Assembly: GCA_001003605.1 (NCBI GenBank)
Contig: LCPL01000010.1
Coordinates: forward strand, 1,528-65,527
Source: Parcubacteria group bacterium GW2011_GWC2_48_17
GTDB lineage: Bacteria; Patescibacteriota; Minisyncoccia; Phycocordibacterales; UBA10002
Reading direction: 5' to 3'
Length of the DNA stretch: 64,000 nt
The translations under genes and the position numbers were made by a program. Under the pieces are notes generated by a model. It worked only from the letters and a program-made list of their open reading frames with translations. It searched no databases and was not told the origin of the DNA. Of this stretch, positions 10,796 through 34,309 are shown one piece after another. How positions within the stretch are numbered: position 1 is the first letter of the stretch; each line of letters begins with the position of its first letter.

Positions 10796-10816
10796 TTTAT
10801 CAAGCATTTTGTACAG

Positions 10817-10850: not shown

Positions 10851-10913
10851 ATTGAAGAAAAAGCCGTTTGATCATTTCTGGAAAAAGCAGGTTTTGTAAT
10901 TCACCGCAACAAT

Positions 10914-14352: not shown

Positions 14353-14365
14353 TTCTCCTGACCTC

Positions 14366-14567
14366 AAACAAAGCCCAAAGCACAGTGTCCAAAAACCCAA
14401 ACAATGAAGACAAACTACCAAAAACACAGTTCATAAAGACCCAAAATGGAAGTCGGCAGGGTCAATGTCGGCACCTGTGGACGGGATGAGTTTGTGTTTT
14501 GAGGATTTGTGCAGTTTGTTTGGACTTTGTGTACTGTGTTTTGTGAAGTTTAATGTAGGTAATTACT
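14366..14567 (+). repeat. bipartite intergenic repeat, copy A (A/C-rich arm, 40-nt spacer, G/T-rich arm)
   Basis: The G/T arm from about 14491 to 14567 is about 95 percent identical to 32454-32526; the A/C arm CACAGTGTCCAAAAACCCAAACAA is shared with 32398-32421. Confidence 0.7.
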
Positions 14568-14571
14568 AAGT

Positions 14572-16872
14572 ATGCACTGCACTATCTGTAACAGCAAGAA
14601 TACTTTGCTTCTTGACACTCCATTTCAGGTGTACGGCTGTAGGGACTGCCGCCATGAATGGAGCGCGTTACCTCCTCCCAAACAGGAAACATATCACCCG
14701 GAATATTTTCGCGAGAAGCACCGCAAATGGTTCGAATATCCGAACATCTCCCTGTTCAAGCGGATTCATGAAGCGACAGAGAGATATACGATAGGAAAGG
14801 ACACCTTTTCTTTTCTCGACATAGGGTGCGGTCAAGGAGACCTTCTCCGCTACTTAAAGGAGAAGGGGAGTCGCGCGAAGCTCTTCGGCATCGACTTGGT
14901 GCAAAATAAAGACGACGGTATCACATACTACCAAGGCGATTTCACGAGATTGCCTTTCACGCAGAAATTCGATGTCGTTTCTGGTCTTATGGTAATCGAG
15001 CATATCGGCGACCCGCACGAATTTATGCGAAAAACCACTTCCGTGCTCAAACCGGGCGGCTTCGTCATCATGAATACGATAAATTCAGGCGGATTTTTGT
15101 ACACGCTCGCCCGTTTTCTTCGGACGGTTGGTTTCCGCGCCCCTTTTGAGCGGCTCTACGACAAGCATCATCTTGAGCATTACAACACCTCGTCACTTCG
15201 CAAGTTGTTTGAACTTGAAGGGTACAGCATTATGAATCATCGCGTGCATAATTTTCCGCTTAACGCGCTTGACGTGCCGGAGGGAAGTAAAATGCTTGCG
15301 TTCTTCTATCGAACCTGCATAGCCTGCGCCTTTCTTCTCACCGCTCGCGTAGGAGGGGTGCACCAGACACTTATCTGCAGAAAAAGTAAAATTGGTTCAT
15401 CTATGCAGGCGAAGCTCAAAGCATTTATTCACACCTATCCGGGAGCGCTTTTCCTTATCGGCGTTTTGCTGTTCGTCAATTTCTACTCTTTCTCCACGCT
15501 CACGACAAAGCCCGCCTATTGGTACGACGAGGCGATGAACGTGGAACTCGCGAGAAATTTCGCTGACTTCGGCAAGCTTGACCTCATTGTCGCTCCGAAC
15601 ACCTTTTCGGGGCAAGGAGCGCTCGTTGGTTCTACCGGATACCCCATCACGGTTTCGCTTGCCGGCTTCTTCAAGATATTCGGATTCGGTCTTCCCCAAG
15701 CGCGCATCTTTATGCTTCTTTGGATTAGCACGCTTCTCGCGGTGTTCTTTTATATCGCGAAAGAGCTCTGGGGAACGCGCGTCGCGTACGCAGGCACGCT
15801 TCTCATCGCGACCTTTGCCCCGTTTTACGGAAACGGACGGAGCGTGATGGGCGAAATCCCCGGATTTCTCTTTTTCCTCTGCGCGTTCTATTTTCTTGAG
15901 CAAAAAAAGTGGTGGCAGTCGGGACTCCTACTTGGCCTTGCGGTAATCTCCAAACCCTCCATCTTTGTTTTTCTTATTCCGGCGTTCGCGCTTATCGTCC
16001 TCTGCAAGAGCGAAACATGGAAGAACAAGCTCATTCAACTCATAAAACTTGGCGGGAGCTCCACACTCGCGCTTTTGCCGTTTTTCGCCATCTACTTTGA
16101 TGAAATCGCGCGCGGAGGGCTCTTCCAAAATATCCTCCTGCACTTCAAGAACCCTTATGAAGAGGCCGGGTTAAGTGCCCTCACGAACATTGTGAACAAT
16201 CTCCCGACGCTCATCACCTCCACGACGTTCTGGTATTTGTGGGTGATGCTTGCCGTTATCATTTTCGCACTTTTTATAGAGCGGACGCTCTTCCGCGAGC
16301 ATTCTCATCTTTTCATCTTGGCGGGCGTCTATCTCCCGCTGTCGCTATTCCAATATCTTAAGAGTCTCGGCTATTTGCGATACTTAATAGCCGCCGAGTT
16401 TTTGATATTCATTTTGTTTCTTATCACACTCCCCGCACTCACAAAGTTCTTTGCCGAAAAATCAAAATTCTCCTGGAAAGCGCCACACATCACCGCGGCC
16501 GTCATTGTGGTTACGGTCATCATGCAGGTAATCCACTTGTTTACCTACGCCAATCTCTACTCGTCCACCAAGGCACAAGAAACAATTTTGCGCGTGTATG
16601 CGTCCTCCCTCCCGAGCACGGTAGGAATCATCAATGTCCCGCAAGTCGCAAGCTTCATTCCGGCGTTTCAGAAATATCAATACCTCTCTACCTACGGACT
16701 TTCCGAATTCGGGACTCGCATGCTCTATCTCGCGCCGGAGAAATTACCAGGCGTAATCATAACCGCGTCAGGGGATAGTGAACTTTCACCAGAAGAACGG
16801 GCTATCCTCGCGAGGAGCTATGACGAAGACATGGCGTTTACGGATGGCTTTTCGATATACAGGAAGAAGTAA
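14572..16872 (+). CDS. fusion of a Zn-ribbon/SAM methyltransferase with a large polytopic membrane domain (GT-C-like?)
   Basis: N-terminus CxxC...CxxC plus LDIGCGQGDLL MTase motif; C-terminal roughly 500 aa has more than 10 predicted TM helices. Confidence 0.6.
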   Translation: MHCTICNSKNTLLLDTPFQVYGCRDCRHEWSALPPPKQETYHPEYFREKHRKWFEYPNISLFKRIHEATERYTIGKDTFSFLDIGCGQGDLLRYLKEKGSRAKLFGIDLVQNKDDGITYYQGDFTRLPFTQKFDVVSGLMVIEHIGDPHEFMRKTTSVLKPGGFVIMNTINSGGFLYTLARFLRTVGFRAPFERLYDKHHLEHYNTSSLRKLFELEGYSIMNHRVHNFPLNALDVPEGSKMLAFFYRTCIACAFLLTARVGGVHQTLICRKSKIGSSMQAKLKAFIHTYPGALFLIGVLLFVNFYSFSTLTTKPAYWYDEAMNVELARNFADFGKLDLIVAPNTFSGQGALVGSTGYPITVSLAGFFKIFGFGLPQARIFMLLWISTLLAVFFYIAKELWGTRVAYAGTLLIATFAPFYGNGRSVMGEIPGFLFFLCAFYFLEQKKWWQSGLLLGLAVISKPSIFVFLIPAFALIVLCKSETWKNKLIQLIKLGGSSTLALLPFFAIYFDEIARGGLFQNILLHFKNPYEEAGLSALTNIVNNLPTLITSTTFWYLWVMLAVIIFALFIERTLFREHSHLFILAGVYLPLSLFQYLKSLGYLRYLIAAEFLIFILFLITLPALTKFFAEKSKFSWKAPHITAAVIVVTVIMQVIHLFTYANLYSSTKAQETILRVYASSLPSTVGIINVPQVASFIPAFQKYQYLSTYGLSEFGTRMLYLAPEKLPGVIITASGDSELSPEERAILARSYDEDMAFTDGFSIYRKK

Positions 16873-16875
16873 TCT

Positions 16876-16907
16876 AGCAATAGTATACGTTCGTATACTA
16901 TTGCTAA
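16876..16907. terminator. 14-bp perfect hairpin TAGCAATAGTATACG..CGTATACTATTGCTA directly after the stop codon
   Basis: Read directly. Confidence 0.5.
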
Positions 16908-17029
16908 AGTGGGGAGTAAGAAATAAGAGAGCGAAAGATAAGAGAAAAACTGTACCGATGACAGTCTCTGTAGGAAGTTATCGTTTCATATCAGTGCATT
17001 TATTATGAATCGTGTTACATTAAATACCC

Positions 17030-18055
17030 ATGGCGCAAGAACTTGAGAACAGGACGATATTGGTGACGGGAGGCGCTGGGTTCATGGGTTCGAATTTCAT
17101 TCATTTTCTTTTTGCCAATGTTCCCGGCGTGAAAGTTGTAAATCTTGACCTTCTCACGTACGCGGGCAATGTTCGAAATCTCGAAGGTATTGAAGGCAAA
17201 CCGTATACTTTCATACATGGAGATATAGCTGATGCCGCTCTTGCGGCAAAACTCTTCCTGAAGGCCGACTATGTCGTAAACTTCGCGGCCGAGACGCATG
17301 TGGACCGTTCTATTCATAAAGGCGCGGCCGACTTTGTCCACACCAACATTGAAGGAGTGCACGCGCTTCTTGAGGCGCTTCGCGCTTCACCGAACGTGAA
17401 AAAAATGGTGCAGGTCTCAACGGATGAAGTGTGGGGCGACCTCCCGCTCGGCTCAAAAAAGAAGTTTAACGAAGAAACGCCCTTCAAACCCAATTCTCCG
17501 TACGCCGCGTCCAAAGCCGGAGGAGACCTGCTTATTCGCTCGTATGTAAAAACATACGGCCTGCCGGTCATTGTGTCTCACTCGGTCAATAATTTCGGGC
17601 CGCGGCAATTCCCTGAAAAACTTATTCCATTCTTCGCGCTTCGCGCCATGAAAGGGGAGTCATTGCCTCTCTATGGCGACGGAAAAAACGTGCGCGATTG
17701 GCTCTATGTTGATGACCACTCCAGTGCCATCGCGACTCTTCTTAAAAAGGGAAAGGCCGGAGATGTTTACGCGATTTCCTGCGGCGAGGAATACGCAAAT
17801 ATCGATATCGCCAAAAAGATACTCGGCATTTTGGGAAAATCTGAGAAACTCATTACCTTTGTGAAGGACCGTCCCGCTCATGACCGCCGGTACTCCGTCG
17901 ATTCTTCAAAAATAAGAGCGCTCGGCTGGAGGCCCCGCATCTCATTTGATGAAAAACTCAAGGAAACTTTACAATGGTATTCCGAAAACAAATCGTGGAT
18001 TAAAGGTGTTATAAAGAACAACACAAATATAAATTCCCACATTAGCCTGAAATGA
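17030..18055 (+). CDS. rfbB: dTDP-glucose 4,6-dehydratase
   Basis: ILVTGGAGFMGSNF, YAASKAG and NFGPRQFPEKLIP motifs. Confidence 0.9.
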   Translation: MAQELENRTILVTGGAGFMGSNFIHFLFANVPGVKVVNLDLLTYAGNVRNLEGIEGKPYTFIHGDIADAALAAKLFLKADYVVNFAAETHVDRSIHKGAADFVHTNIEGVHALLEALRASPNVKKMVQVSTDEVWGDLPLGSKKKFNEETPFKPNSPYAASKAGGDLLIRSYVKTYGLPVIVSHSVNNFGPRQFPEKLIPFFALRAMKGESLPLYGDGKNVRDWLYVDDHSSAIATLLKKGKAGDVYAISCGEEYANIDIAKKILGILGKSEKLITFVKDRPAHDRRYSVDSSKIRALGWRPRISFDEKLKETLQWYSENKSWIKGVIKNNTNINSHISLK

Positions 18056-18082
18056 GCTGTATTTACCTTTAACGTAGCTTTT

Positions 18083-18215
18083 GTGACGGGATGATCCCGT
18101 TAGATGTCGCGGACGCTCGCGAATACATTACCTAGCATGGATAACGTATGTTTACCAATAATTACGGCGGGAGCCGCGGAAGACTTATCGTCCGCGTCCT
18201 ACCTCTAATGGGATG
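18083..18215 (+). promoter_or_regulatory. 5' leader element with terminal inverted repeats GATCCCGTTAGA ... TCTAATGGGATG; the right repeat contains the start codon
   Basis: Inverted repeats read directly; paralogous to 57755-57900. Confidence 0.5.
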
Positions 18216-18947
18216 AAAGGCGTCATATTAGCCGGTGGGGACGCGACACGACTTCGTCCGCTCACCCTCGTTACCAATAAGCACCTTCTGCCGGTATACA
18301 ATAAGCCGCTCATTTATTATGGGATAGAGCGATTGGTGGAGGCGGGTATAGACAGGATTATGGTGGTAACTTCACCGCGTCATGTAGAAAATTTCGTCGG
18401 ACTTCTCGGTTCCGGACAAAATTTCATTTCCCAAAAAGACGGCAAGCAAATACAAATTGTGTACGGCATCCAAAATGGTCCTTCCGGTATCGCCGACGGA
18501 CTTTATATCGCCAAGGATTATATCGGCGCCGATAATTGCGCGCTGTATCTCGGCGACAACATCATAGAAGACGATATCAGCGAACATATCGCGCGTTTCA
18601 AGAAAGGCGCGCTGGTTTTCCTGAAGGAAGTGAAAGACCCGCAGCGGTTCGGCGTGGCAGAGGTCGATGCTTCCGGCAAAGTACTAGGCATCGAGGAAAA
18701 GCCAAAGGAACCGAAATCGAACCTCGCTGTAGTCGGCCTCTATATCTACGATAACTCGGTGTTTAAGAAAATGGTCGGTCAGCCAATGTCGGAACGAGGC
18801 GAGTATGAGATTACGTATCTCAACAATAAATATATTGAAGAAGGAACTCTTCGCTCAGTGCATCTTGAAAAGGAATGGTTTGACGCGGGCACCGCGGACA
18901 GCCTGCTTGAAGCAGGGAATTTTATGGAGAAAAAGGCTCGTGGATAG
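18213..18947 (+). CDS. rfbA: sugar-1-phosphate nucleotidyltransferase (short-form RmlA-like glucose-1-phosphate thymidylyltransferase)
   Basis: MKGVILAGGDATRLRPLT N-terminus; adjacent to rfbB. Confidence 0.8.
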   Translation: MKGVILAGGDATRLRPLTLVTNKHLLPVYNKPLIYYGIERLVEAGIDRIMVVTSPRHVENFVGLLGSGQNFISQKDGKQIQIVYGIQNGPSGIADGLYIAKDYIGADNCALYLGDNIIEDDISEHIARFKKGALVFLKEVKDPQRFGVAEVDASGKVLGIEEKPKEPKSNLAVVGLYIYDNSVFKKMVGQPMSERGEYEITYLNNKYIEEGTLRSVHLEKEWFDAGTADSLLEAGNFMEKKARG

Positions 18948-18954
18948 CGTTATT

Positions 18955-20250
18955 ATGATTTCTGCGCGACAACATTCTGTGTCTATTTTTTTCCCATGCT
19001 ATAACGACAAGGGTACGATTGGCTCGCTCGTGCTTGAAGCGACGCGGGTGGCAAAGACGCTCACGGACGATTTTGAGGTCATCGTCATAGACGACGGCTC
19101 GCAGGACGGGAGCCGTGAACTCCTAATGGACATGAAGCTCAAGAACGAAATTTCGCAGTTCAAGCTTGTTATGCACGAGAAGAATCGCGGGTACGGCGCC
19201 GTACTTCAAACAGGATTCAAGACAGCAAGCAAAGAACTGGTTTTTTATACGGACGGCGACGGGCAATATGATGTACGGGAACTTCCGAGGCTGTGGAAGA
19301 AGATGACGCCAGATATGGATGTTGTGAACGGCTACAAGATAAAGCGGCATGACCCGTTTCACCGTATTATCATTGGGTATATCTATCAATACGCAATGAA
19401 ATTCGCGTTTGGACTCTCCATTAAGGATGTTGACTGCGATTTTAGGTTGATTCGACGGAAGGTATTTGATACGGTGGAACTTACGAGTACGACCGGGACT
19501 GTTACGATTGAACTCGTGAAGCGCGTCCAGCAGGCTGGATTTCGTTTTACCGAGGTCGGCGTTTCGCACCATTTCCGCACATACGGCACGTCGCAATTCT
19601 TCAGTTTTAAGAGAGTATTCAAGACTCTTTGGAAATTGATATTTCTCTGGACCGACCTTATTCTACTTCACGCGCTTGAGAAGCCGGCGGTTTCTATATT
19701 TCTTCGGAAGATTCTTGAGGGGAATTTCATACAGCAAAAGAAGATTATCCGCGAGCGATTTTTAACATCGGCTGGCGGAAAGGTTCTCGACCTCGGCTCT
19801 GGAACCGGAGAATTCTCACCGCTTTTTTCTAATGAAGGCTACTCTGGAATCGATATTGACCCAGCCAACATTGCATTCGCGAAGACGCACTATCCTGGAA
19901 AGGAGTTTAGGCAAGGAGACGCGCGAGAGCTTCCTTCCGCGGATGACGCGTTCGACAAGATTCTGGTCGTTGGAGTGTTGCATCACCTTAGCGACGATGA
20001 TTGCCGGAAGGCGCTTTCAGAAATGACGCGCGTACTGCGGAAACATGGTACGCTTCTTGTCATTGAAGACACGAAGTACCGAAGCATTGTGTCGAAGGTG
20101 CTTCGCGCCATTGACCGGGGAAATCATGTCCGCGGCTTTGAGGAATGGGAAGATATGCTTGGCGCATACTTTACGATACGGGACTCCTGTATGTTTCGAA
20201 CCGGTATTGGCTGTCCGTATTCCGCATTCGTACTTACTCGCAAAGATTAA
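18955..20250 (+). CDS. fusion of a GT2 glycosyltransferase with a class I SAM methyltransferase
   Basis: VSIFFPCYND...EVIVIDDGSQDGS (GT2) then KVLDLGSGTGEF...VVGVLHHLSDDD (MTase); the track ORF starts at 18805 inside the upstream gene, and the realistic ATG is at about 18955. Confidence 0.7.
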   Translation: MISARQHSVSIFFPCYNDKGTIGSLVLEATRVAKTLTDDFEVIVIDDGSQDGSRELLMDMKLKNEISQFKLVMHEKNRGYGAVLQTGFKTASKELVFYTDGDGQYDVRELPRLWKKMTPDMDVVNGYKIKRHDPFHRIIIGYIYQYAMKFAFGLSIKDVDCDFRLIRRKVFDTVELTSTTGTVTIELVKRVQQAGFRFTEVGVSHHFRTYGTSQFFSFKRVFKTLWKLIFLWTDLILLHALEKPAVSIFLRKILEGNFIQQKKIIRERFLTSAGGKVLDLGSGTGEFSPLFSNEGYSGIDIDPANIAFAKTHYPGKEFRQGDARELPSADDAFDKILVVGVLHHLSDDDCRKALSEMTRVLRKHGTLLVIEDTKYRSIVSKVLRAIDRGNHVRGFEEWEDMLGAYFTIRDSCMFRTGIGCPYSAFVLTRKD

Positions 20251-20251
20251 A

Positions 20252-21535
20252 ATGAAAAATCCACGAACAAAGAAACGTCTCATGGTAGAACACGATGTTT
20301 CGCCGGGAAAGCTTTCGCGCTGTCAGATTACCGGTTCAGCCAACCTCTTTGAGATTATAGATTTGGGACATCAGCCACCGTGCGATTCGCTTCTTTCGAA
20401 AGACAAACTTGACGCTCCCGAGACTCACTATCCACTTCGACTATTCCACTGTCCCGATTCGGGGCTTGCACAGCTCGATTATGTCATTGACGGCTCGGTG
20501 ATTTATTATCCTGAGTATCCCTATCGGAGCGGCATCTCAAAACCGCTTGAAGAATACCAGCGCGCGTTTGCGGGAGGCGTGGTGAAAAACCTCGGCATCC
20601 CCCGCGGGTCGCTTTCGGTTGATATCGGCTCGAATGACGGCACGCTCCTTACCGGATTTCGACGCGTGGGAATGAAGACGCTTGGTGTCGAGCCGACCAA
20701 TATCGCGAAGATTGCGAGGAAAGAAAATAACATAGACACCATCCAGAGTTTTTTTACGGAAGTGGTCGCGAAGGATATCGTAAAAGAATACGGACATGCA
20801 AAAGTGGCCACAATGACCAACGTATTCGCGCATATGGCGCCCTTAGGGGAAGTGATGCGCGGACTCGTGGCTCTTCTTTCGCGAGACGGCGTTTTCATCA
20901 CCGAGAGCCAGTACCTTCTCGATGTACTCGAAAAAAATCAGTTTGACGGTATCTATCACGAACATATCCGCACGTATAGTTTGAAGTCGCTCGTAACGCT
21001 CTTTCCCTACTACGGTATGGAAGTTTTTGACGTTGAGCGCGGAGATAGGTACGGCGGGAATATCCGCGCCTACATCGCGAGAAAAGGGGTGAGACCGATT
21101 TCAAAAAGGGTTCGGGAACTCTTGGCTCGCGAAGAGAAAGCAGGCCTCCATCGTCCCGAGACGTGGGCGAAATGGAAGAAACGCGTGGAAGAAAACCGCT
21201 TCCGTTTTATGGACTTCGCCTATGACGCGAAAAAGAAGGGAAAGCATCTTGTCGGCAATTCCTGTCCCGGGCGGGCGACGACGCTACTCAATTATTACGG
21301 CGTTGATACGGCGCTTATGCCCTACGTTGCCGAGCTTCCAAATGGACTGAAGGTGGGGAAGTACCTCCCCGGAAAGCACATTCCAGTCGTTTCGAACAAT
21401 ATTCTTTTCAAAGAGCAGCCCGATTACGTCGTACTTCTCGCGTGGCACTACAGCGATTTTATGATACAGGATTTGCGCGCGCGAGGTCTCAAGTCAAGAT
21501 TCATTATTCCATTACCAGAGTTTAAAGTTGTATGA
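20252..21535 (+). CDS. NDP-hexose C-methyltransferase family (TylCIII-like; Zn-binding N-domain, MTase, C-methyltransferase C-domain)
   Basis: CQITGSANLFEIIDLGHQPPCDSLL...LFHCPDSGLAQLD Zn-finger, VDIGSNDGTLL and C-terminal domain; paralog of 25380-26591. Confidence 0.75.
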   Translation: MKNPRTKKRLMVEHDVSPGKLSRCQITGSANLFEIIDLGHQPPCDSLLSKDKLDAPETHYPLRLFHCPDSGLAQLDYVIDGSVIYYPEYPYRSGISKPLEEYQRAFAGGVVKNLGIPRGSLSVDIGSNDGTLLTGFRRVGMKTLGVEPTNIAKIARKENNIDTIQSFFTEVVAKDIVKEYGHAKVATMTNVFAHMAPLGEVMRGLVALLSRDGVFITESQYLLDVLEKNQFDGIYHEHIRTYSLKSLVTLFPYYGMEVFDVERGDRYGGNIRAYIARKGVRPISKRVRELLAREEKAGLHRPETWAKWKKRVEENRFRFMDFAYDAKKKGKHLVGNSCPGRATTLLNYYGVDTALMPYVAELPNGLKVGKYLPGKHIPVVSNNILFKEQPDYVVLLAWHYSDFMIQDLRARGLKSRFIIPLPEFKVV

Positions 21536-22299
21536 TTGATACTATCAAGCACGTTATCTCCCGCGTGAAAGCGTATAAGAATTGGTACTCAATTGTCTGG
21601 CCGATGACGCGCCTACTTTCCCGGGAGAGGATTTTGGAAACGAGAGCCGGTCCCATGATGTACGTGAGGAATATCTTCGGGCCCGATTTTGTCGTGGTCC
21701 ACGAAATGTTCTTTCGGGACGATTACGGAGTACGAGAGCTTCATTTGAATGTGAGCGAGCCGGTGATTGTTGACGCCGGAGGGAATATCGGAGCATTCTC
21801 GCTCCTCGCGCTGGCGACCTATCCTAACGCCAGGATTCTTTGTTATGAGCCGGAAGCGTCAAATCTCGATATAATACGAAAAAATGTCAGACTTAACGCC
21901 GCTGAAAAGCACATTACCTGCTTCAAAGAGGCGATTGACAACACGACTGGCATGAAGACCTTTTATCTTTCGCAAGCGGAGTATGCCCACAGCCTGGAAA
22001 AATCAGCGGACTCTCGTCATGCCGGAGAGATAAGCGTTGCAACAACCACTATAGAGCGCATTATGCAGGATAACCATATCAAACGATTGGATTTGCTAAA
22101 GCTCGATATAGAGGGCACGGAATATTCAGTTTTGCGTAATTTGCCACTGGAGCTGTATCCTCGCATCAAAAATATCGTCTTGGAGATTCACGACCACCCT
22201 TCGGAGAAGAAAGAAGATTTAGTCAGGTTTCTGGCCGAGCATGGATACGCGGTCGCACAGTCAGGCACCAATCCCCATGTCTTTTTGGCGCAGCACTAA
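21532..22299 (+). CDS. FkbM family methyltransferase
   Basis: [14 protein letters not shown] motif, Methyltransf_21-like. Confidence 0.75.
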
Positions 22300-22310
22300 C
22301 ACGTACCGAC

Positions 22311-23411: not shown

Positions 23412-23466
23412 GCGTTGCGTTGTATCGATGCGGTGGAAATGAGTTTAGTTACTATAGGCACTACAT

Positions 23467-25266: not shown

Positions 25267-25379
25267 GAATGCAAGCTCTCGGATCCGCGAAAATCTTTCG
25301 CCAAAGACGGCTTGGAATCGCTGTCTATGCGAGAGGTGGCGTCCGTGGTAACATCCTGAATTATAGACGGTTTCGGCGT

Positions 25380-26591
25380 ATGTATTGTTTCATTTGCAAA
25401 AACAAACACTTGTTCAAGTTTCTTGATTTGGGCGACCAACCGCCGAGCGATGCTTTTTTGCGGAAAGAGGATTTAGAAAGACCGGAAGCGAAGTATCCTT
25501 TATCGCTCTATTTCTGCGAAGAGTGCACATTGGTTCAAATTGGGTTCGTCGTTGACCCGAAGATTTTGTTTCGGGACTATGTCTACACTACGGGGATGAA
25601 CAACAGCTTGCGCGCGAACTTCAAGGCGCTAGTTGAAACGCTCGTGTCTCGCTACGCGCTTACAAAGAGCGATTTCGTCATAGACATCGGCTCAAATGAC
25701 GGAACATTACTCGCCAATTACACGCCCCACGGAGTAAATGTCCTCGGCATCGACCCCTCGAGCGCGAGCACTCTCGCGAAAGATAAAGGCATTCCGACGG
25801 AAGTAGATTTTTTTAACGAGCGCACCGCTCTACGGGTAGAAAGAAAGTATGGCAAGGCAAAGGTGATTACCGCGACCAATGTGTTCGCGCATGTAAATGA
25901 TTTGGATTCATTCATGCGAGGCATTACGGCTGTGCTTCGCGAAGACGGCGTTTTCGTGTCGGAGTCGGGCTACCTTCTCGATATGGTTCTGACCCTCGGA
26001 TATGACGCGATTTACCACGAGCACCTCCGCTACTATTCTCTCCGGCCGCTTAAGGCGCTTTTCGAGCGATTCGGAATGGAGGTCTTTGATGTTGAGCGCA
26101 TACAAAGCCATAGCGGTTCAATCAGAGTATATGCCGCGTTTAATGGAGTGCATCCTACAAAGGCCTCTGTCGGCGAGCTTCTTGCTTTGGAGGAAAAAAA
26201 GGGATTGTATGCCCGTCAAACTTTTGTTGAGTTTGCTCGGCGCGTGTACGCGCACCGCGATGCGCTTACGGTGTTGCTTGCCGATGTAAAGAAATCCGGA
26301 AAGCGAATCGTCGGGATTGGAGCTCCGGCAAAAGGAAACACTCTGCTCAATTTCTGCGGTATCATTCCGGAAACTGTAAATTGCATCCTCGAAAAGAGCG
26401 CTCTTAAGATAGGCCTTTTTACTCCAGGGATGCACATTCCCGTCGTCGGTGAGGAACGTCTTTTTGCCGAACAGCCGGAGTACGCACTCATACTTGCGTG
26501 GAACATTGCTCCCGAACTCATGTCGAAGCTTAGGCAAAAAGGATTTAAAGGAAAGTTTATCATTCCATTTCCTAGAGTTAAGATTGTCTAA
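25380..26591 (+). CDS. NDP-hexose C-methyltransferase family, second paralog
   Basis: CFICKNKHLFKFLDLGDQPPSDAFL...LYFCEECTLVQ, IDIGSNDGTLL and C-terminal domain co-linear with 20252-21535. Confidence 0.75.
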   Translation: MYCFICKNKHLFKFLDLGDQPPSDAFLRKEDLERPEAKYPLSLYFCEECTLVQIGFVVDPKILFRDYVYTTGMNNSLRANFKALVETLVSRYALTKSDFVIDIGSNDGTLLANYTPHGVNVLGIDPSSASTLAKDKGIPTEVDFFNERTALRVERKYGKAKVITATNVFAHVNDLDSFMRGITAVLREDGVFVSESGYLLDMVLTLGYDAIYHEHLRYYSLRPLKALFERFGMEVFDVERIQSHSGSIRVYAAFNGVHPTKASVGELLALEEKKGLYARQTFVEFARRVYAHRDALTVLLADVKKSGKRIVGIGAPAKGNTLLNFCGIIPETVNCILEKSALKIGLFTPGMHIPVVGEERLFAEQPEYALILAWNIAPELMSKLRQKGFKGKFIIPFPRVKIV

Positions 26592-26668
26592 GTTCTTTCC
26601 TACTTGCTACCTTCTACCATCTACCTTCTACTTTCTAATTTCACTCTCTACTAACTACTTACTTCTTT

Positions 26669-27463
26669 ATGCATCTTCCACTTTTAGGCATGGGCACATG
26701 GGGGATGGGTGGAAAGTATGAACGCGATGAGAATAATGTAACAGAATCCATCGAACTTCTTTCGTACGGTTTTGACATGGGGTTCCGCCTTGTTGATGTT
26801 GCCGAAATTTACGGTGAAGGCCTTACTGAAACCATACTCGGGAAAGCGATGAAGGGGAGAAAGCGCGAAGACATCTTCGTTATATCTAAAGTGTGGAAAG
26901 AGCATCTTCGCTACGACGAGGTGCTCCGCGCGGCGGAAGGAAGCTTAAAGCGTCTCAATACGCCGTACATTGACCTCTATCTTGTGCACTGGCCCAATCC
27001 CGAAATCCCTCTTAAAGAAACTATGTCTGCTATGGAGACGCTTATAGAAAAGGGATTTGTAAAAGAAATAGGCGTAAGCAATTTCACGGTTCCGCTTATG
27101 GAGGAAGCATCGTCGTACCTTTCACACGCAAAACTCTTCGCGAACGAGATAGAATATAATCTTGCCGTCCGCGATGCTGAAAGAGAGGTAATTCTATTCT
27201 GCAAAAAACAAGGCATTAATGTGATTGCGTATCGGCCGCTCGCAAAAGGTTCACTTCTCTCCGGACAAAACGCAATTTTGCAATCGCTCTCTTCAAAATA
27301 TAAAAAGACTCCGGCGCAGGTCGCTTTGAATTGGATTATAGGAAAAGGCGCGAGCGCGATACCAAAGGCAGGAAGCCGCGAACATCTCAAAGAAAACATT
27401 GGAGTGCTAGGGTGGCATCTTTCCACCGAAGATGTTTCGCTTCTGGACGCATCACGTTTTTAG
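26669..27463 (+). CDS. aldo/keto reductase
   Basis: LVDVAEIYGEG, DLYLVHWPNP and IGVSNF motifs. Confidence 0.8.
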   Translation: MHLPLLGMGTWGMGGKYERDENNVTESIELLSYGFDMGFRLVDVAEIYGEGLTETILGKAMKGRKREDIFVISKVWKEHLRYDEVLRAAEGSLKRLNTPYIDLYLVHWPNPEIPLKETMSAMETLIEKGFVKEIGVSNFTVPLMEEASSYLSHAKLFANEIEYNLAVRDAEREVILFCKKQGINVIAYRPLAKGSLLSGQNAILQSLSSKYKKTPAQVALNWIIGKGASAIPKAGSREHLKENIGVLGWHLSTEDVSLLDASRF

Positions 27464-27487
27464 CGCGGCAGGGGTTGTATTTGCACT

Positions 27488-28537
27488 ATGGGGAAAAAAG
27501 CGATTATAAGCGGCATCACCGGTCAAGACGGCTCTTATCTCGCGGAGCTTCTTTTGGGGAAAGGATACGAAGTGTATGGCCTCCAGCGCAGGGCTAGTTT
27601 GCCGAATACTGGACGCATTGACCATCTCTATGGAAGAAAAGGTTTCAACATGACCTACGCCGACCTTTCGGACAGTTCTAATCTTCTCCGCGTGATTAAG
27701 AAGATAGGGCCGGATGAATTTTATAATTTGGGCGCCCAGAGCCACGTTGGTGTGAGTTTTGATGTGCCTGAATTTACCGTCAATACCAACGCCCTCGGAC
27801 CGCTTCGCATCCTTGAAACAATTCGCAATTTAGGACTGCCCATCAAATACTATCAAGCGAGTTCGTCGGAAATGTTCGGGAAAGTGCTTGAAACACCACA
27901 GAAGGTGACGACCCCATTCAACCCGCAATCACCCTACGGCCTCTCAAAAGTATTCGCGTATCACATCACCAAGATTTACCGCACCGGATATAGCATCTTC
28001 GCCTCAAACGGCATTCTCTTCAATCATGAATCCCCCCGACGCGGTCAGAACTTCGTTACTCGAAAAGTAACGATGGGGTTATCTCGCATTTCGCTTGGAC
28101 TCCAAAAAACGCTCCGGCTCGGCAATCTCGATGCCAAACGCGACTGGGGATATTCCAAAGATTACGTCGAAGCAATCTGGAAGATACTTCAGCACAAAAA
28201 GCCCGATGATTTTCTCATCGCGACCGGAGAGACTCACTCGGTGCGCGAGTGGGTGGAAGAGGTAGGGAAACATCTTGGCATGAAAATCGAATGGAAAGGG
28301 AAAGGACTCAAGGAAAAAGGCATTGACAAAAAGACGGGAAAAATTGTCATAGAAGTTGACCCCATTCACTTTCGCCCGAATGAAGTTGAATTTCTGCAAG
28401 GAGATTCTTCCAAAGCGCGCAAGCTTTTGAAGTGGAAGCCGCGGACAACCTTCAAAGCTCTCGCCAAACTGATGACCGAAGCAGACCTTATCTATGTGCG
28501 AGAGGAAGTGGCGCAAGGACATCCGGTCACAAAGTAA
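27488..28537 (+). CDS. gmd: GDP-mannose 4,6-dehydratase
   Basis: KKAIISGITGQDGSYLAELLL N-terminus, YQASSSEMFG and SPYGLSK. Confidence 0.9.
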   Translation: MGKKAIISGITGQDGSYLAELLLGKGYEVYGLQRRASLPNTGRIDHLYGRKGFNMTYADLSDSSNLLRVIKKIGPDEFYNLGAQSHVGVSFDVPEFTVNTNALGPLRILETIRNLGLPIKYYQASSSEMFGKVLETPQKVTTPFNPQSPYGLSKVFAYHITKIYRTGYSIFASNGILFNHESPRRGQNFVTRKVTMGLSRISLGLQKTLRLGNLDAKRDWGYSKDYVEAIWKILQHKKPDDFLIATGETHSVREWVEEVGKHLGMKIEWKGKGLKEKGIDKKTGKIVIEVDPIHFRPNEVEFLQGDSSKARKLLKWKPRTTFKALAKLMTEADLIYVREEVAQGHPVTK

Positions 28538-28686
28538 AAACACAAAACACAGTACACAAAGACCAAACAAAGCACAGAGCTTCAAAGCACAAACAAGGGA
28601 CAACAAAGTATTGTTTGAGAAGTTTGGATTTTGTAATTTGTTTGTATTTTTGGATAGTTTGTGTTTTGGAAAGTTTGTTTTTAACC
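28535..28686 (+). repeat. bipartite intergenic repeat, copy C (A/C-rich arm directly abutting the G/T-rich arm)
   Basis: CACAAAACACAGTACACAAAGACCAAACAAAGCACAG is close to the reverse complement of TTTGTGCAGTTTGTTTGGACTTTGTGTACTGTGTTTTGTG from copies A/B, and is followed by a G/T arm. Confidence 0.6.
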
Positions 28687-28689
28687 CTT

Positions 28690-29073
28690 ATGGACAACAT
28701 TTTTTTAGGCAAGAAACTCGTTGCTGTTCATGTGCGCCGTTTTCCAGACGCGAAGACAATGCCGGTAACTTCTCCCAACGAGGCGCTCCAACTCCTCACG
28801 CTAAAACGCATGAAAGGGGATATTATCAAAGCGCACCTGCATGTCCCTAAAAAGCGCGTGACGAAGGGGCTTCAAGAATGCACCATCGTCATTAAGGGAA
28901 AAATACGGTGCGACCTTTTTGATAAAGAAGTTAAATGCTTCAGGAAAGTCTTTGTTAGGGAAGGTGAGGCGATGCTTACATTAGGCGTCGCGCACTCCGT
29001 TCATTTTCTGGAGGATTCTCTAGTGTACGAACTCAAAAACGGGCCGTTCATAGACGATAAGAAATTCATCTAA
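28690..29073 (+). CDS. small cupin-like protein (possible sugar keto-isomerase/epimerase)
   Basis: About 128 aa; GDIIKAHLHVPKK His-containing segment and predicted beta-rich sequence; the track ORF starts at 28432 inside the repeat, and the realistic start MDNIFLG is at 28690. Confidence 0.35.
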   Translation: MDNIFLGKKLVAVHVRRFPDAKTMPVTSPNEALQLLTLKRMKGDIIKAHLHVPKKRVTKGLQECTIVIKGKIRCDLFDKEVKCFRKVFVREGEAMLTLGVAHSVHFLEDSLVYELKNGPFIDDKKFI

Positions 29074-29076
29074 GTC

Positions 29077-30303
29077 ATGCGGATTTTTTTAATCACCTCT
29101 AAATTGAATTTCGAAGAGAACGGCTCTCCAGTTGGCGGTTCTGTCGTTGACCTTCATCTCAAAGCAAAAGGCCTCGCGGAACTTGGCCATGAGGTTTTTG
29201 TGGTTACGGCTTTCTCCGAAGCGAACAGATTATTCGCTCCGCTTCCGTATACAGTCTTTGAACGGCGCATAAATGGGCGCGGCCTCTTTGGCCTTCAGCG
29301 AGGTGTATACGCCATTCTTAAAGAATATGAGAAACAGGCCGACGCATTCTATATTGACGGGCATATGTTCCTTTATGGCGGCGGAGCTTATCGCATGCTT
29401 GGAGGCCGCACTCCTGTCGCGGGTTTTTTCAATATCCGCCTAAACTCATGGGCCGACACTGCGGGCAACGCGGTACGCCCGTCTTTGTATCGGCGCGTGA
29501 AGAAGAAAGTACGATACTTTCTGGAGAAAACACTCGGCGCGTCGGTCGCCAATCACTTGGATGCGTTCATCTTCAACACGCCCCATGTGCAGAAGCTCTA
29601 TCATGATTTTGGCGTTGGAAACGAAAAACCCAACGTCGTGATACAAGATTTTGTAGCGACAAGCGACCTTTCGCATCGCTTTGCCATAACGAGTGAGCGC
29701 GCAATGGAGCATCAGAGAAACGCGAAACCAATCGTACTTTTTGCAACAGGGCGAATGATTCCCGAAAAAGGATTTGAGCTTCTGCTTCGTGCCTTCGCTA
29801 TTCTCCAGAACAAAGAAAATTATAGCCTGGTCCTCTCCGGAGGAGGGCCGGACAAAGAGCGCTTGGAAGCAACCGCGAAAAAACTCGGGATAAGTTCACT
29901 CGTGGAATTTCCCGGTTGGGTTCCGCGGGAAGAACTCTACGGATTCTTCGCGAAGGCGCATATCTTTATTTTCCCCCGCTGGTGGATTGAATATGGCTCG
30001 GCTGTGCTTACCGAGGCGATGGCTTTCGGTCTTCCTTCTGTCATTCCCGGCGGGGGCGCGCTCGAGTGGCTAACCCGCGCGAATCTGCCCGAAACAGATT
30101 CGTTAGGGCAAGCAAGTGGCTCCGCGTTGACGTTCAACAATGACAATACTGACGAACTCGCGCGACAGATTGAAAAACTCGGAGAGGACGCCACCCTTCG
30201 CGTAGGACTTGCCGAAAAAGCTCTCGCTCGCGCCGAAGAACTTGACGCAAAAACGCTCGCCAAGCGACTGGAAGAAACCATCGTCTCTTGTGTTAAAAAG
30301 TAG
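29077..30303 (+). CDS. GT4 family glycosyltransferase
   Basis: GT-B pattern; IPEKGFELLLRAF and EYGSAVLTEAMAFGLPSV motifs. Confidence 0.8.
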   Translation: MRIFLITSKLNFEENGSPVGGSVVDLHLKAKGLAELGHEVFVVTAFSEANRLFAPLPYTVFERRINGRGLFGLQRGVYAILKEYEKQADAFYIDGHMFLYGGGAYRMLGGRTPVAGFFNIRLNSWADTAGNAVRPSLYRRVKKKVRYFLEKTLGASVANHLDAFIFNTPHVQKLYHDFGVGNEKPNVVIQDFVATSDLSHRFAITSERAMEHQRNAKPIVLFATGRMIPEKGFELLLRAFAILQNKENYSLVLSGGGPDKERLEATAKKLGISSLVEFPGWVPREELYGFFAKAHIFIFPRWWIEYGSAVLTEAMAFGLPSVIPGGGALEWLTRANLPETDSLGQASGSALTFNNDNTDELARQIEKLGEDATLRVGLAEKALARAEELDAKTLAKRLEETIVSCVKK

Positions 30304-30310
30304 CGCTTCT

Positions 30311-30344
30311 TCTATTCCAGTGTTCTGCAGAACATTGGAATAGA
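30311..30344. terminator. near-perfect 34-nt palindrome TCTATTCCAGTGTTCTGCAGAACATTGGAATAGA after the GT4 stop
   Basis: Read directly, with one G-T wobble. Confidence 0.5.
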
Positions 30345-30509
30345 GGGTACTCGGCTTTTAATTAGTCCTTCGAAGGAAGAGTGAGATATCACATGGATTG
30401 ACATATACTAGTAAGCATGCCAGGATTGAAGGTCCCCACAAGCTAAAGGGGGTTCTGCCACGAAAAGGTCGCGGTAAGAAAACATTGAAAACTGAAAAGG
30501 AGACAAAGC

Positions 30510-31382
30510 ATGAGCTGGAAGACTTTTGTGTGTATCGCAGTCGTCTATCAGTATGGATTAGTGCAGGTCGCCATCAAGAAGATAGGGGCCGTTCCAGGCT
30601 CGCGCACGAGGAAACTCGTGTGGCAGTACCTCTTTGCGGCTTTCCTTGCATTGACCGCTGGAGCAATTGCCGGGCGGCTCGAATTGACCCCATCGGTCTT
30701 GATCGTCGCAGTTATTGGTGCAGGGAACGCCTTCGCCTGTTATTGTCATTGGCGAGCTTATGACATTTCGATGGCTCGCACGGCGATGCTTAGCACTCTC
30801 GATGATTTTACCGCCATCGGACTAGGCTACCTGCTACTCGGCGAACTTCAGGTACTTACACCGCTACTTACTGCGGGAGTCGTCATATCAGCCGTTAGCG
30901 CGATAATGTTTTCGCGAGTCAAGAACCCAAGTGAGGCAACCTCTCGCTCTCTGATTTTTTGGGTGCTTGGCTACAGCTCAATATGGGGTGTCGCTATGTT
31001 TTCACTCCGCTACTTCTCGCTTCAGGGGCTAAGCATGATTACCTTCGGGGCCGCGTGGTACAGTGGCGCTTTCATCGGCGCTCTTATAACGCGTTTTGTG
31101 ATCATGGGGCGGGACGAGGCCGGTCCGCCACTTTCAAACGGAGAACGAGCGAAGGTGTTTCTACTTGCGGTACTCATATGGACATCACTCATGTTTTGCT
31201 ATCGGTTGCGCGAACTGGTTCCGGTTACCGTTATCCAGCCGATACAGCTCGTGTCAGAAATGAGCATACCGGCGATTATTGGCATGATGTTCTTTGGCGA
31301 AGCAAAAAAGATGTCGCGGAAGGAAATTGCGGTCATCGCGGTCGGTCTCCTCGGAGCCGTACTTATCGCGGTCGCTTACTAA
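30510..31382 (+). CDS. polytopic membrane protein (about 9-10 TM; possible transporter/flippase)
   Basis: Hydrophobic throughout; AAGGAG ribosome-binding site 8 nt upstream. Confidence 0.5.
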   Translation: MSWKTFVCIAVVYQYGLVQVAIKKIGAVPGSRTRKLVWQYLFAAFLALTAGAIAGRLELTPSVLIVAVIGAGNAFACYCHWRAYDISMARTAMLSTLDDFTAIGLGYLLLGELQVLTPLLTAGVVISAVSAIMFSRVKNPSEATSRSLIFWVLGYSSIWGVAMFSLRYFSLQGLSMITFGAAWYSGAFIGALITRFVIMGRDEAGPPLSNGERAKVFLLAVLIWTSLMFCYRLRELVPVTVIQPIQLVSEMSIPAIIGMMFFGEAKKMSRKEIAVIAVGLLGAVLIAVAY

Positions 31383-31488
31383 AGATGGGCGTCGCCGTCT
31401 TTCGTTTCTTCGCGCCTTGCGGGTTCGTTCGTTCCGAATCCGTGAGGCGCTTTTTGTTTGATGCGACGCAAGACGAGTCAGAAAGAAA

Positions 31489-32349
31489 TCACTTCTCCTT
31501 CTTCACACAGTACAGATTAATAAACTCGCTCGCGTGGGAGCCGTCTTTCGGTTTTGGAAGCAGAGCCAAGAAACTCTCGTCTTTAACCGGAGATAGCTTG
31601 ATGAGACCGCTTTGCGTTATAGCGGAAATCTCGAACCCATGCTTTTCAATGCTCTGAAGAAACGCGAGCGGAGTGTTTCCGGATGCCTCTACCCATGCCG
31701 GAGCAAGTTCGGTAACAAGAACGCGCGCACTTTTGAGCGCGCGCGTCATGCCGGAAAGCGCCGCCCCCTCTCCGCCTTCAATGTCCATCTTGATAACATC
31801 AACGCGTAGGATACCGTTTTTCTCCAGCCACGAATCGAGCGTTGTCGCGCCGACTGTGAGTTTTCTCTTTGAAAAGTCGAGCGGGACATTTCCAAGTGTC
31901 GAATGCGCTCCGCTCTTGTCGTCATAGTGGTAGAAATCTATAATACCGACCCTGTCGGTGATTGCGATTTGCGCGGTCCGCACATTCTTGAAGCCCTTCG
32001 TATTTTGAGAAAGGAGAGCAAAGTTCGTCGGGTCGGCTTCAAAGGCGAGTACCTCCCCTCCATATCCTACGAGCTTTGAAAACAGGCGGGTAAAGTATCC
32101 GATATGCGCTCCGATATCAACAACAACCATGCCTTTGGTAATTGTCTTTTTAAAAAGCGCGTACGTTTCCCGTTCGTAGAGTCCGAAGAGCATATTGAGT
32201 TTCCATCTGCGTATGTAATTTTTGGGAAAAGAAAATCGTTTGTATTTTGCAAGAAGGTCCGTCAAGAAATCAAGCGCCGCGTAAATCGCGCGGTCGAGCG
32301 CGGGAGCATGGATGTAGGTGCGGTAGAGTGTGCGAAGACGTGCGATCAT
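31489..32349 (-). CDS. FkbM family methyltransferase
   Basis: VVDIGAHIGYFT...EVLAFEADPTNF...RVDVIKMDIEGGE. Confidence 0.75.
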   Translation of the reverse strand: MIARLRTLYRTYIHAPALDRAIYAALDFLTDLLAKYKRFSFPKNYIRRWKLNMLFGLYERETYALFKKTITKGMVVVDIGAHIGYFTRLFSKLVGYGGEVLAFEADPTNFALLSQNTKGFKNVRTAQIAITDRVGIIDFYHYDDKSGAHSTLGNVPLDFSKRKLTVGATTLDSWLEKNGILRVDVIKMDIEGGEGAALSGMTRALKSARVLVTELAPAWVEASGNTPLAFLQSIEKHGFEISAITQSGLIKLSPVKDESFLALLPKPKDGSHASEFINLYCVKKEK

Positions 32350-32390
32350 AAAGATTGTCTAATTCCTAATCCATCTAATTTAGACGGCAC

Positions 32391-32526
32391 CCAAGGCACA
32401 GTGTCCAAAAACCCAAACAAAACACAATTCGTCAAAAAACCAAACAAGTCCGATTTGTGTTTTGGAGATTTGTGCAGTTTGTTTGGACTTTGTGTACTGT
32501 GTTTTGTGAAGTTTAATAGGTAATTA
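32391..32526 (+). repeat. bipartite intergenic repeat, copy B
   Basis: See copy A; lies between two minus-strand genes. Confidence 0.7.
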
Positions 32527-34062: not shown

Positions 34063-34177
34063 GCGAATGAGGACACCCTGCGCTCCCGCGCAGGGAAGTC
34101 GGGGCGGCCAGGCAATGGTCTAACGCCCTAAGTCTCTTGATAACTAGCCCGATATCCGTTAAGTTTCCGACAATCCT

Positions 34178-34219
34178 CCAAGGACTATCCTATGTGTATT
34201 CACATAGGATAGTCCTTGG
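34178..34219. promoter_or_regulatory. 19-bp perfect hairpin CCAAGGACTATCCTATGTG-TATT-CACATAGGATAGTCCTTGG in the divergent intergenic region
   Basis: Read directly; a second hairpin CCCTGCGC-TCCC-GCGCAGGG lies at about 34075-34094. Confidence 0.6.
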
Positions 34220-34309
34220 GGTACCACCATTGTATTCTTTTCGCCACAAGGCTAGTTACAGTATTGTATTGCATAACGGTGAGGTAGAATAGTGTAACAT
34301 CATATAGCT

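Follow-up and report, generated by a model that had tools for sequence, protein, structure and literature searches.

A 64,000-nt stretch of contig LCPL01000010.1 from Parcubacteria group bacterium GW2011_GWC2_48_17 (hereafter the window) carries three hairpin elements, here called A, B, and C, each composed of an A/C-rich run directly followed by a G/T-rich run and each lying between two co-directional genes. Apart from a diversity-generating retroelement (DGR; see below), the open reading frames (ORFs) of the window that have a Pfam match belong to glycan and nonulosonic-acid biosynthesis, export, or other metabolism, several ORFs being unmatched; the 64 kb contain no rRNA, and among their genes there is no transposase, integrase, or IS200/IS605-type gene. 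Element A occupies the entire spacer from a GT2 glycosyltransferase gene (13420-14352, stop codon 14350-14352) to a methyltransferase-GT39 gene (14572-16872), element B lies between a GDP-mannose dehydratase gene (27488-28537) and an ORF of 127 amino acids (aa; 28690-29073, start codon at 28690), and element C separates a minus-strand FkbM-type methyltransferase gene (31489-32349, start at 32349) from a capsule-synthesis gene (32524-34062, stop codon 32524-32526). A first-pass annotation of this DNA had described three intergenic segments of this composition, and they are present as described; the plus-strand start codons that it placed beside two copies (ATG 14572 and 28690) and the minus-strand genes that it placed around one (the copy at 32391) are likewise there once the copies are relabeled in coordinate order. 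Positions of the elements and of their parts are collected in Table 1.

Table 1. Hairpin elements A, B, and C and the parts of the diversity-generating retroelement, in window coordinates.
Feature	Positions	Strand	Basis or match
Element A, whole hairpin, TAATT to TAATT	14350..14564	+	sequence, repeat comparison, scan, fold
Element A, A/C-rich arm, three ~26-nt sub-units, includes AATGAAGACAAAC	14366..14445	+	repeat comparison, alignment to L022
Element A, central piece, ATG at 14446-14448	14446..14490	+	alignment to L022 cassette
Element A, G/T-rich arm; conserved 31-mer TTTGTTTGGACTTTGTGTACTGTGTTTTGTG at 14515-14545	14491..14556	+	repeat comparison
Element B, entire hairpin, opposite in orientation to A and C	28531..28689	-	repeat comparison, fold
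Element B, conserved 31-mer core, differing from A and C at one position	28541..28571	-	repeat comparison
Element C, whole hairpin with outer inverted repeat CATCTAATT / AATTAGGTG	32372..32530	+	repeat comparison, fold
Element C, A/C-rich arm, two sub-units	32390..32446	+	repeat comparison, scan
Element C, G/T-rich arm; conserved 31-mer at 32478-32508	32454..32517	+	repeat comparison
DGR target gene; variable repeat at 4631-4755	4071-4790		
DGR template repeat	5122-5246		
DGR bAvd-like gene	5253-5675	-	PF22296
DGR reverse transcriptase	5646-6644		RVT_1

A sliding scan of (G+T)-(A+C) over the whole 64 kb detected an A/C-rich run directly followed by a G/T-rich run at exactly three places, 14360-14556 (A), 28519-28684 (B), and 32384-32517 (C), and a 27-mer of the G/T arm occurs three times in the window at no more than one mismatch, compared with no occurrence in 100 dinucleotide shuffles. 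The left arms of A and C (14374-14404 and 32390-32420) are 97% identical over 31 nt and their right arms (14491-14554 and 32454-32517) are 97% identical over 64 nt, both in the same orientation; over the full alignable element the identity is 93%, A having about 65 additional central bases. The near-identity of two G/T arms claimed earlier is thus confirmed over these 64 nt, but the pair concerned consists of the copies at 14366 and 32391, the letters having been assigned out of coordinate order. At 30 of 31 nt (97%), the left arm of B (28541-28571) matches the opposite strand of TTTGTTTGGACTTTGTGTACTGTGTTTTGTG, the right-arm core of A and C, so that the copy at 28535 is inverted relative to the other two, which contradicts the proposal that all copies share the same plus orientation. 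Since the order A/C to G/T reads identically on both strands, that order carries no information on orientation and provides no argument for mobility. The arms are made up of two or three sub-units of ~26 nt of the type AAARCACAGTnnnCAAAAAnCCAAAC. ORFs across the three elements are low-complexity read-through only, as had been noticed before.

The hairpins reach slightly past the borders given earlier, with the pentamer TAATT at 14350-14354 and 14560-14564 in A and at 32376-32380 and 32521-32525 in C. On inspection by eye, TAATT in direct orientation bounds A, C, and the elements L021c and L040 alike (loci retrieved for comparison are designated by L numbers), and in the public record the borders of B read TTTAA/TTAA. 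The TAATT borders may represent a specific target or a duplication, or they may belong to the element itself, the last being possible because the pentamer is identical in all four copies and nearly palindromic.

As far as aligned sequences can demonstrate it, the elements were inserted exactly between stop and start codons and are present or absent at orthologous sites. Locus L066 has the same order of GT2, methyltransferase, GT39, and epimerase genes at 76-80% nucleotide identity and lacks element A: its alignment with the window breaks exactly at 14353-14569, L066 reading AAT TTT TAA CGCGT ATG CAC TGC where the window reads AAC TTC TAA, 219 nt, and ATG CAC TGC. At this empty site, which has only TAA in common with TAATT, both reading frames are untouched, and the spacers at the element A junction measure 5-19 nt in L066 and L067. 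Conversely, L040 carries an element after the homologue of the window gene 53144-53662, where the window has a 64-nt spacer with a 13-bp hairpin of its own; the end of this element, TTCACCTAATT, replaces the native C-terminus of the gene and supplies '..FT-stop', as the inverted end does for the capsule-synthesis gene at 32524-34062, whose last two codons and stop codon lie inside the end of element C. Strain L064 has an identical 408-aa neighboring gene, an identical element C, and a divergent dehydratase allele, and in place of B it carries (at 189-304) an unrelated 117-nt A-rich/T-rich hairpin with a minimum free energy (MFE) of -42.8 kcal/mol, of which no other copy was found in any sequence compared. 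Other contigs of the same species have A, B, and C unchanged. The insertion polymorphism that the first-pass annotation had proposed to look for is thus present, with an empty site in L066 and a filled one in L040 where the window is empty, and the elements stand as repeated inverted-repeat elements, not as remnants of duplicated flanking genes.

In four of the retrieved loci (L007, L022, L027, and L042), the arms lie 350-400 nt apart and enclose a gene of ~120 aa that belongs to PF05635 (23S rRNA intervening-sequence protein, Avd-like), with E-values of 9e-16 and 3.8e-18. The closest solved structure to the cassette protein is 2RLD, an uncharacterized protein with five chains in the entry, and its 2716 homologues, where the sources name them, are called 'four helix bundle protein' and come mostly from Parcubacteria, Portnoybacteria, Liptonbacteria, Moranbacteria, and Microgenomates. 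Three homologues picked on long contigs (L047, L048, and L050) are likewise closely preceded by an A/C arm of the family type and closely followed by a G/T arm. The order A/C arm, gene, G/T arm in the sense of the mRNA was observed in 7/7 cassettes examined, and in the same seven the start codon and first codons of the gene (M-x-x-N-S-T-N-R) lie inside the innermost arm unit. Wherever the flanks were called, the cassette gene is co-oriented with the upstream host gene, e.g., in L022, where it lies between livH and livM, and in L050, where map and ruvX flank it. Many contigs with a PF05635 cassette gene are very short (0.5-3 kb), and with so many carrier contigs under 3 kb, the cassettes probably break metagenome assemblies.

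Homology between the window elements and these cassettes was tested in a noncircular manner, with a profile built from the six window arms only. This profile matches both arms of the L022 cassette (E-values of 1.7e-6 and about 1e-3) and the arms around the PF05635 genes in L007, L042, and L047 (about 2e-4). Furthermore, copy A is colinear with the L022 cassette, from the three-unit A/C arm, including AATGAAGACAAAC, to the start-codon context (CAAAATGG vs. CACAATGG), where the ATG at 14446-14448 occupies the position of the cassette start codon; copy A then lacks the gene and continues with ~12 nt resembling the 3' end of the cassette gene (GTGGACGGGATGAG vs. GTGTCGGGGTAG) and with the whole G/T arm. 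This arrangement suggests that positions 14446-14490 are the remnant of an internal deletion, and a comparison of L021b with the cassette reveals a deletion even cleaner than that in copy A. L027 offers an example from a different subfamily: the gene-bearing cassette at 4718-5208 and the gene-less element at 6227-6338 have a subfamily-specific arm segment in common that is identical at 31/31 nt; judged by this arm, their relationship is of the type that links a MITE (miniature inverted-repeat transposable element) to its parent, though the parent gene is no known transposase.

The search for copies outside the window, also proposed earlier, uncovered a large family in other genomes, common among metagenome-assembled genomes of Patescibacteria and in metagenomes, both by 20-mer scans and with the arm profile. 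The exact 20-mer TTTGTGTACTGTGTTTTGTG has seven matches in 185,579 species-representative genomes, 6/7 being true bipartite elements, which are spread over five genomes with one or two exact 20-mers each; the carriers are metagenome-assembled genomes labeled Patescibacteria or Saccharibacteria, two labeled Bdellovibrionales, and one unclassified bacterium. In metagenomes, the exact 20-mer occurs at 32 loci, ~18 of them true elements. Matches discarded as chance hits or unrelated tandem repeats were L012, L015/L038, L017/L029, and L023/L032 and, on the same grounds, L024/L045, L026/L039, L028/L034/L043, and L030/L037. Diverged extra copies without the 20-mer accompany the matched ones at the same loci (three in 4.9 kb in L021, three within 8 kb of L036), and the A/C-G/T hairpins include at least two further sequence subfamilies, the outermost tips differing by subfamily (TAATT in A and C, TTTAA in B). 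Typically, an element fills its spacer from a few bases after the stop codon up to 0-60 bases before the next start, and in other genomes either arm faces either kind of gene end. The exact 20-mer is absent from 2.9 million viral contigs, on which ground a phage origin was rejected.

Two smaller features of the arms deserve mention. A GC-rich stem-loop of 35-45 nt (CCCCG...CGGGGCAGRCAAA) is nested between A/C-arm sub-units in L014 (7125-7200), in L020/L025 (near 6700), and in L040, and it may be a smaller element within the larger one. In addition, GCACAGTGTCCAAAAACC holds the heptamer CACAGTG and eight of the nine nonamer bases of a V(D)J recombination signal, a likeness treated as coincidental because the spacer is 2-3 nt rather than 12/23 and because the heptamer is internal and variable (CACAGTA, CACAATG).

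One family member resides within a 23S rRNA gene. In L025, Rfam places this gene at 5144-8691 (1231.9 bits); its span is 3548 nt, compared with 2925 positions in the model, and the region 4763-8691 also holds a group I intron (RF00028, 55.7 bits). The element at 6605-6790, which contains the exact 20-mer and matches the window-only arm profile at an E-value of 2.7e-12, lies inside an insertion of 252 nt, which takes the place of 24 model positions near 988-1011. Another subfamily contributes a second A/C-G/T hairpin (8124-8265), which is contained in a 159-nt insertion replacing a 6-nt loop near model positions 283-288. Read against the rRNA model, the gene-less copy in L025 replaces the tip of a 23S helix, which is the classical anatomy of an rRNA intervening sequence (IVS). 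Such sequences, known since 1990, have complementary ends that pair into a stem; the loop may hold an S23p/PF05635 ORF, and RNase III excises the whole (PMC4990558). That IVSs are mobile, with the ORF serving this mobility, was proposed in 1993 and never tested (Ralph and McClelland, cited in PMC4990558), and the origin and spread of IVSs and the role of their conserved ORF have remained unexplained (PMC4990558). A survey of rRNA genes in the candidate phyla radiation (CPR) described 23S_rRNA_IVP ORFs together with many short ORF-less insertions (PMC11270868). Our literature search returned no description of such elements outside rRNA in CPR genomes or in the spacers of protein-coding operons.

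Each of the three window elements folds into one long imperfect hairpin, with MFEs of -64 (A), -39.3 (B), and -39.4 (C) kcal/mol and z-scores of -3.3, -2.1, and -2.6, respectively, against dinucleotide shuffles of the whole element. Because A/C-only and G/U-only arms pair fairly well from composition alone, the arms were also shuffled separately, preserving the composition of each; the z-scores were then -2.7 (A), -4.25 (B), and -3.3 (C), and down to -6.8 in relatives. The arms pair better than composition-matched arms, and both the folds and the shuffles bear out the earlier description of the two arms as imperfect reverse complements that form a long hairpin. The opposite strand of element C folds too. 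Across genomes, the outer stem is almost invariant, CAAAACACAG pairing with CTGTGTTTTG, CAAAAA with TTTTTG, and CCAAAC with GTTTGG. Rfam 15 returned nothing at the gathering threshold in the whole window and nothing over the elements at E-values up to 10, and a consensus scan for promoters and terminators called no sigma-70-type promoter-like or terminator-like site inside any copy; the same scan found a canonical GC-rich terminator with a T-run at 31412-31450, between a convergent gene pair.

Collectively, this evidence indicates that A, B, and C are probably gene-less members of a family of IVS-type hairpin cassettes residing in intercistronic spacers of a glycan island. At the level of sequence comparison, the relationship of the three copies to the family, the colinearity of copy A with the cassette, and the membership of the rRNA-borne copy are demonstrated. 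The full cassette would carry the PF05635 gene in the loop of a long stem, between the A/C and G/T arms, and the window copies would have lost this gene but kept the arms, much as a MITE retains its parent's ends. Probably lacking a promoter of their own, the elements would be transcribed as part of the host operon, and their arms would pair in the RNA into an imperfect duplex of ~50-65 bp. Such a duplex would keep the insert structurally self-contained, and the insert could thus be tolerated in intercistronic spacers as well as at the helix tips of rRNA. Judging from rRNA IVSs, the duplex may also be a substrate of RNase III, and the polycistronic RNA would then be cleaved at the spacer. The gene-less copies may have spread via functions supplied by gene-bearing copies, or they may have decayed in place. 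A host-level role of the hairpin (processing, stability, or attenuation) is compatible with this assignment as a secondary effect, a role hinted at by the unique hairpins in other spacers of the window and by the replacement of B with another hairpin in L064.

Several points weigh against the assignment to an IVS-type family. No gene-bearing copy was found within the 64 kb of this organism, the similarity that identifies the putative deletion remnant in copy A is short and modest, and PF05635 proteins are not known to act as transposases. The borders of A, B, C, L021c, L040, and the empty site of L066 share only TAATT or TAA. The sampled loci were chosen for containing an element, which biases the copy densities. 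No covariation was detected by RNAalifold and pair counting among 20 family members: of the 17 pairs in their alignment nearly all are invariant and one has a double change, 96.7% of cells are paired, and shuffles equal the real data in both respects. As the stem hardly varies, this covariance check, which the first-pass annotation had suggested, is uninformative rather than negative. Additionally, the partner arm of the same copy is never the best complement of an arm, the arms of other copies matching as well; this result is partly due to the presence of copies in both orientations and to a segment of the internal loop that occurs in two variants (GTGTCC or GTACAC), and it fits a constraint at the sequence level or a recent common origin better than selection for pairing. 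Finally, that the elements are transcribed, fold as RNA, and are cleaved by RNase III is in each case something we infer, in part from the behavior of rRNA IVSs.

It seems unlikely that the elements are ordinary MITEs, whose arms would be the terminal inverted repeats for a conventional (DDE or other) transposase encoded elsewhere and whose PF05635 gene would be no more than a frequent passenger. They are indeed short, noncoding, and multi-copy, have long inverted repeats, and are present or absent at orthologous sites, and their arm sequence is conserved without covariation, as would be the case for ends recognized by a protein. Against this origin, the most conserved part is internal (CAAAACACAG..CCAAAC) and the outermost tips vary between subfamilies, there is no clear target-site duplication, and no transposase or integrase is encoded in the window or beside any retrieved copy; moreover, the fixed position and orientation of the PF05635 gene, with its first codons in the arm in 7/7 cassettes, are unlike those of a random passenger. 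The term 'MITE-like' used by the first-pass annotation holds for anatomy and polymorphism and fails for parentage, the parent having no known transposase. A host-selected intercistronic RNA hairpin that terminates transcription bidirectionally or attenuates it, marks a processing site, or stabilizes mRNA, as proposed for repetitive extragenic palindromic (REP) sequences and bacterial interspersed mosaic elements, is another doubtful alternative; the repeat family would then be merely one source among others of the hairpins favored in the operon spacers of this organism. An A-rich left and a T-rich right side give the polarity of a bidirectional terminator, other window spacers carry unique, long, perfect hairpins, and L064 has a different hairpin, not nothing, in place of B. 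An intrinsic (bidirectional) terminator was nevertheless rejected, given that the consensus scan calls none inside the elements, yet finds the canonical one at 31412-31450. Nor is there any enrichment at operon ends: among the 22 elements with both flanking genes called, 19 pairs are co-directional, 2 convergent, and 1 divergent, against 122, 22, and 18, respectively, for background gene pairs in the same loci. L066 and L067 manage with spacers of only 5-19 nt at the element A junction, and a host function would leave both the enclosed gene and the rRNA location unexplained.

The proposal of the first-pass annotation that the G/T arm is a portable module providing the promoter and 5' leader of the downstream gene is very improbable. 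In its favor, the hexamers TTGTGT and TTTAAT, 16 nt apart in A and C, resemble -35 and -10 boxes weakly, and in the gene-bearing form the A/C arm constitutes the 5' leader of the PF05635 gene. The scan, however, finds no promoter-like site in any copy, most family members lack the TTTAAT box, and the orientation of the family relative to genes is mixed; within the window, a start codon lies downstream of the conserved G/T-arm core in 1/3 copies, and in 2/3 the core borders on the 3' end of the gene upstream, into which such a promoter would point antisense. Lastly, short motifs strongly conserved across distant genomes and the filling of spacers between co-directional genes, which resembles integron attC sites, could speak for a signal acting at the DNA level, namely sites for a nucleoid or uptake protein (like pairs of DNA uptake sequences, DUS, or uptake signal sequences, USS) or attC recombination sites. 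This is the least credible of the explanations considered and can be all but dismissed: the elements are too rare for uptake sequences (3 per 64 kb, and 5 genomes out of 185,579 with one or two exact 20-mers apiece), whose defining features are missing, and their ends do not fit the R boxes of attC (RYYYAAC / GTTRRRY), the intervening segments are 4-14 kb of operon instead of cassettes, and the window has no integrase.

Within one lineage, the family shows a single architecture in three states: with a gene, without it, and inside 23S rRNA. Subfamily arms common to gene-bearing and gene-less copies, combined with empty and filled sites, form the classical signature of an autonomous/non-autonomous pair, which makes the 1993 proposal of IVS-ORF mobility directly testable and offers a concrete handle on how rRNA IVSs originated and on what a very large protein family of unknown role does. 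The elements also split tightly packed operons in Patescibacteria, can give host genes their stop codons and C-terminal residues, and yield spurious low-complexity ORFs; if their stems are RNase III sites, they would add a lineage-wide layer of operon processing. PF05635 proteins are four-helix bundles related to the DGR accessory protein Avd, which partners a reverse transcriptase. On a far-reaching reading to which we give little credence, the PF05635 protein would be the trans-acting mobility or maintenance factor of a new class of hairpin-bounded cassettes that spread into RNA-helix tips and intercistronic spacers, perhaps via an RNA or a folded single-strand intermediate; rRNA IVSs would then be the copies of this class that landed in rRNA, and the gene-less copies of the window would be its non-autonomous parasites. 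Because Avd partners a reverse transcriptase in DGRs, such a class might use one as well, for example, the DGR enzyme located 8 kb upstream.

The DGR itself is complete (4071-6644; Table 1), and 17/17 differences between its repeats fall at template adenines. The locus as a whole matches DOPE01000015.1 of assembly GCA_003514705.1 (Candidatus Taylorbacteria, Parcubacteria group) and is also found in GCA_000999035.1. Relative to DOPE01000015.1, the window lacks 30 nt (CGTAACGCAGAGGAGACTTGAGGTTTAAAG) at 28527, the junction between the dehydratase gene and element B; all 8 other assemblies of the element B locus examined carry these 30 nt, and their dehydratase has 355 aa and ends in VVTQRRLEV. 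The dehydratase ORF of the window (349 aa) stops at a TAA inside element B owing to this absence. A further 27 nt are missing in the divergent spacer at 34128, in a comparison made with the public record only. Downstream of element A, the 766-aa ORF 14572-16872 fuses a methyltransferase domain to a GT39 (PMT_2) domain; in L066, the two are separate genes of 272 and 489 aa, 19 nt apart, and homologues elsewhere have ~489 aa and cover only the C-terminal 62-64% of the ORF.

Other spacers of the window also have structure or repeats. Unique, long, near-perfect palindromic hairpins of 13-20 bp, with no T-run after them, lie within 10796-10913, 16873-17029, 30304-30509, 34063-34309, and 53663-53726, and it seems that this organism generally has hairpins between its cistrons, beyond the A/C-G/T family. 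Two 157-nt spacers (18056-18212 and 57741-57897) share another architecture, starting near (GAT)CCCGTTAGA(G) and ending in CTCTAAYGGG directly before ATG 18213 (NTP transferase) and ATG 57898 (capsule-synthesis protein); the 57741 spacer folds with its ends paired, whereas the MFE structure of the 18056 spacer does not, and neither matches Rfam. These spacers may represent a second repeated leader or hairpin element. A 77-nt spacer (26592-26668) between plus-strand genes is C/T-rich and of low complexity (CTACC/TTCTAC-type), and it is unrelated to the A/C-G/T family.

Among known systems, the closest are the IVSs with an S23p/PF05635 ORF described in Leptospira and Coxiella burnetii (PMC4990558). 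Both have complementary ends that form a long stem, optionally with an ORF for a PF05635 four-helix-bundle protein in the loop, both occur in ORF-bearing and ORF-less forms, and both show a sporadic distribution that suggests horizontal spread. The long enclosing stem is found in the window copies and in the gene-bearing copies alike, the PF05635 ORF is found in the family, with the window copies being ORF-less, and the location in a 23S helix tip is that of the L025 copy, not of the three window copies. Unlike IVSs, the window copies and most others found lie in spacers of protein genes and not in rRNA, with many copies per locus, and the arms of the family measure 55-85 nt, are built of ~26-nt sub-repeats, and are strictly A/C-rich, then G/T-rich; excision by RNase III, known for IVSs, is proposed here by analogy.

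With MITEs, the elements share their shortness, the lack of coding capacity, inverted repeats, multiple copies, and insertion polymorphism between related genomes; a transposase-encoding parent is lacking in the window and the retrieved loci, where the longer relatives encode a PF05635 protein instead. Bacterial MITEs with transcribed hairpins include the Correia elements of Neisseria and the enterobacterial repetitive intergenic consensus (ERIC) sequences or intergenic repeat units (IRUs) of enterobacteria. These are short, multi-copy, noncoding inverted repeats that lie in spacers, often inside operons, and are co-transcribed, and processing of their RNA hairpins by RNase III or RNase E alters the stability of the flanking mRNA. 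They have no sequence similarity to the present family, which shows no unambiguous TA-type target duplication and whose full-length relative carries a PF05635 gene rather than a transposase gene.

REP sequences and their hairpin-forming pairs (REPINs), dependent, according to proposals, on one trans-acting gene encoding the REP-associated tyrosine transposase (RAYT), are likewise high-copy extragenic palindromic repeats arranged as inverted pairs (PMC3116915, PMC2817692). REP units are GC-rich palindromes of 20-40 nt with a GTAG or CGTC head (PMC3116915, PMC2817692); the unit of the present family is A/C-rich, not self-complementary, and without GTAG or CGTC, and no RAYT (IS200/IS605-type) gene occurs in the 64-kb window, on which grounds this class was rejected. 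Integron attC sites are also imperfect inverted repeats, of 60-140 nt, that fill co-directional gaps and act as folded single strands. They were rejected because the element ends read TAATT.../...AATTA or TTTAA.../...TTAA, not RYYYAAC / GTTRRRY, and because the window lacks an integrase; in addition, the family has no R-box consensus, the units that it flanks are long operon segments, and the enclosed gene lies inside the repeat, not beside it. The elements are neither IVSs by location nor MITEs by parentage: they are IVS-like in architecture and MITE-like in behavior.

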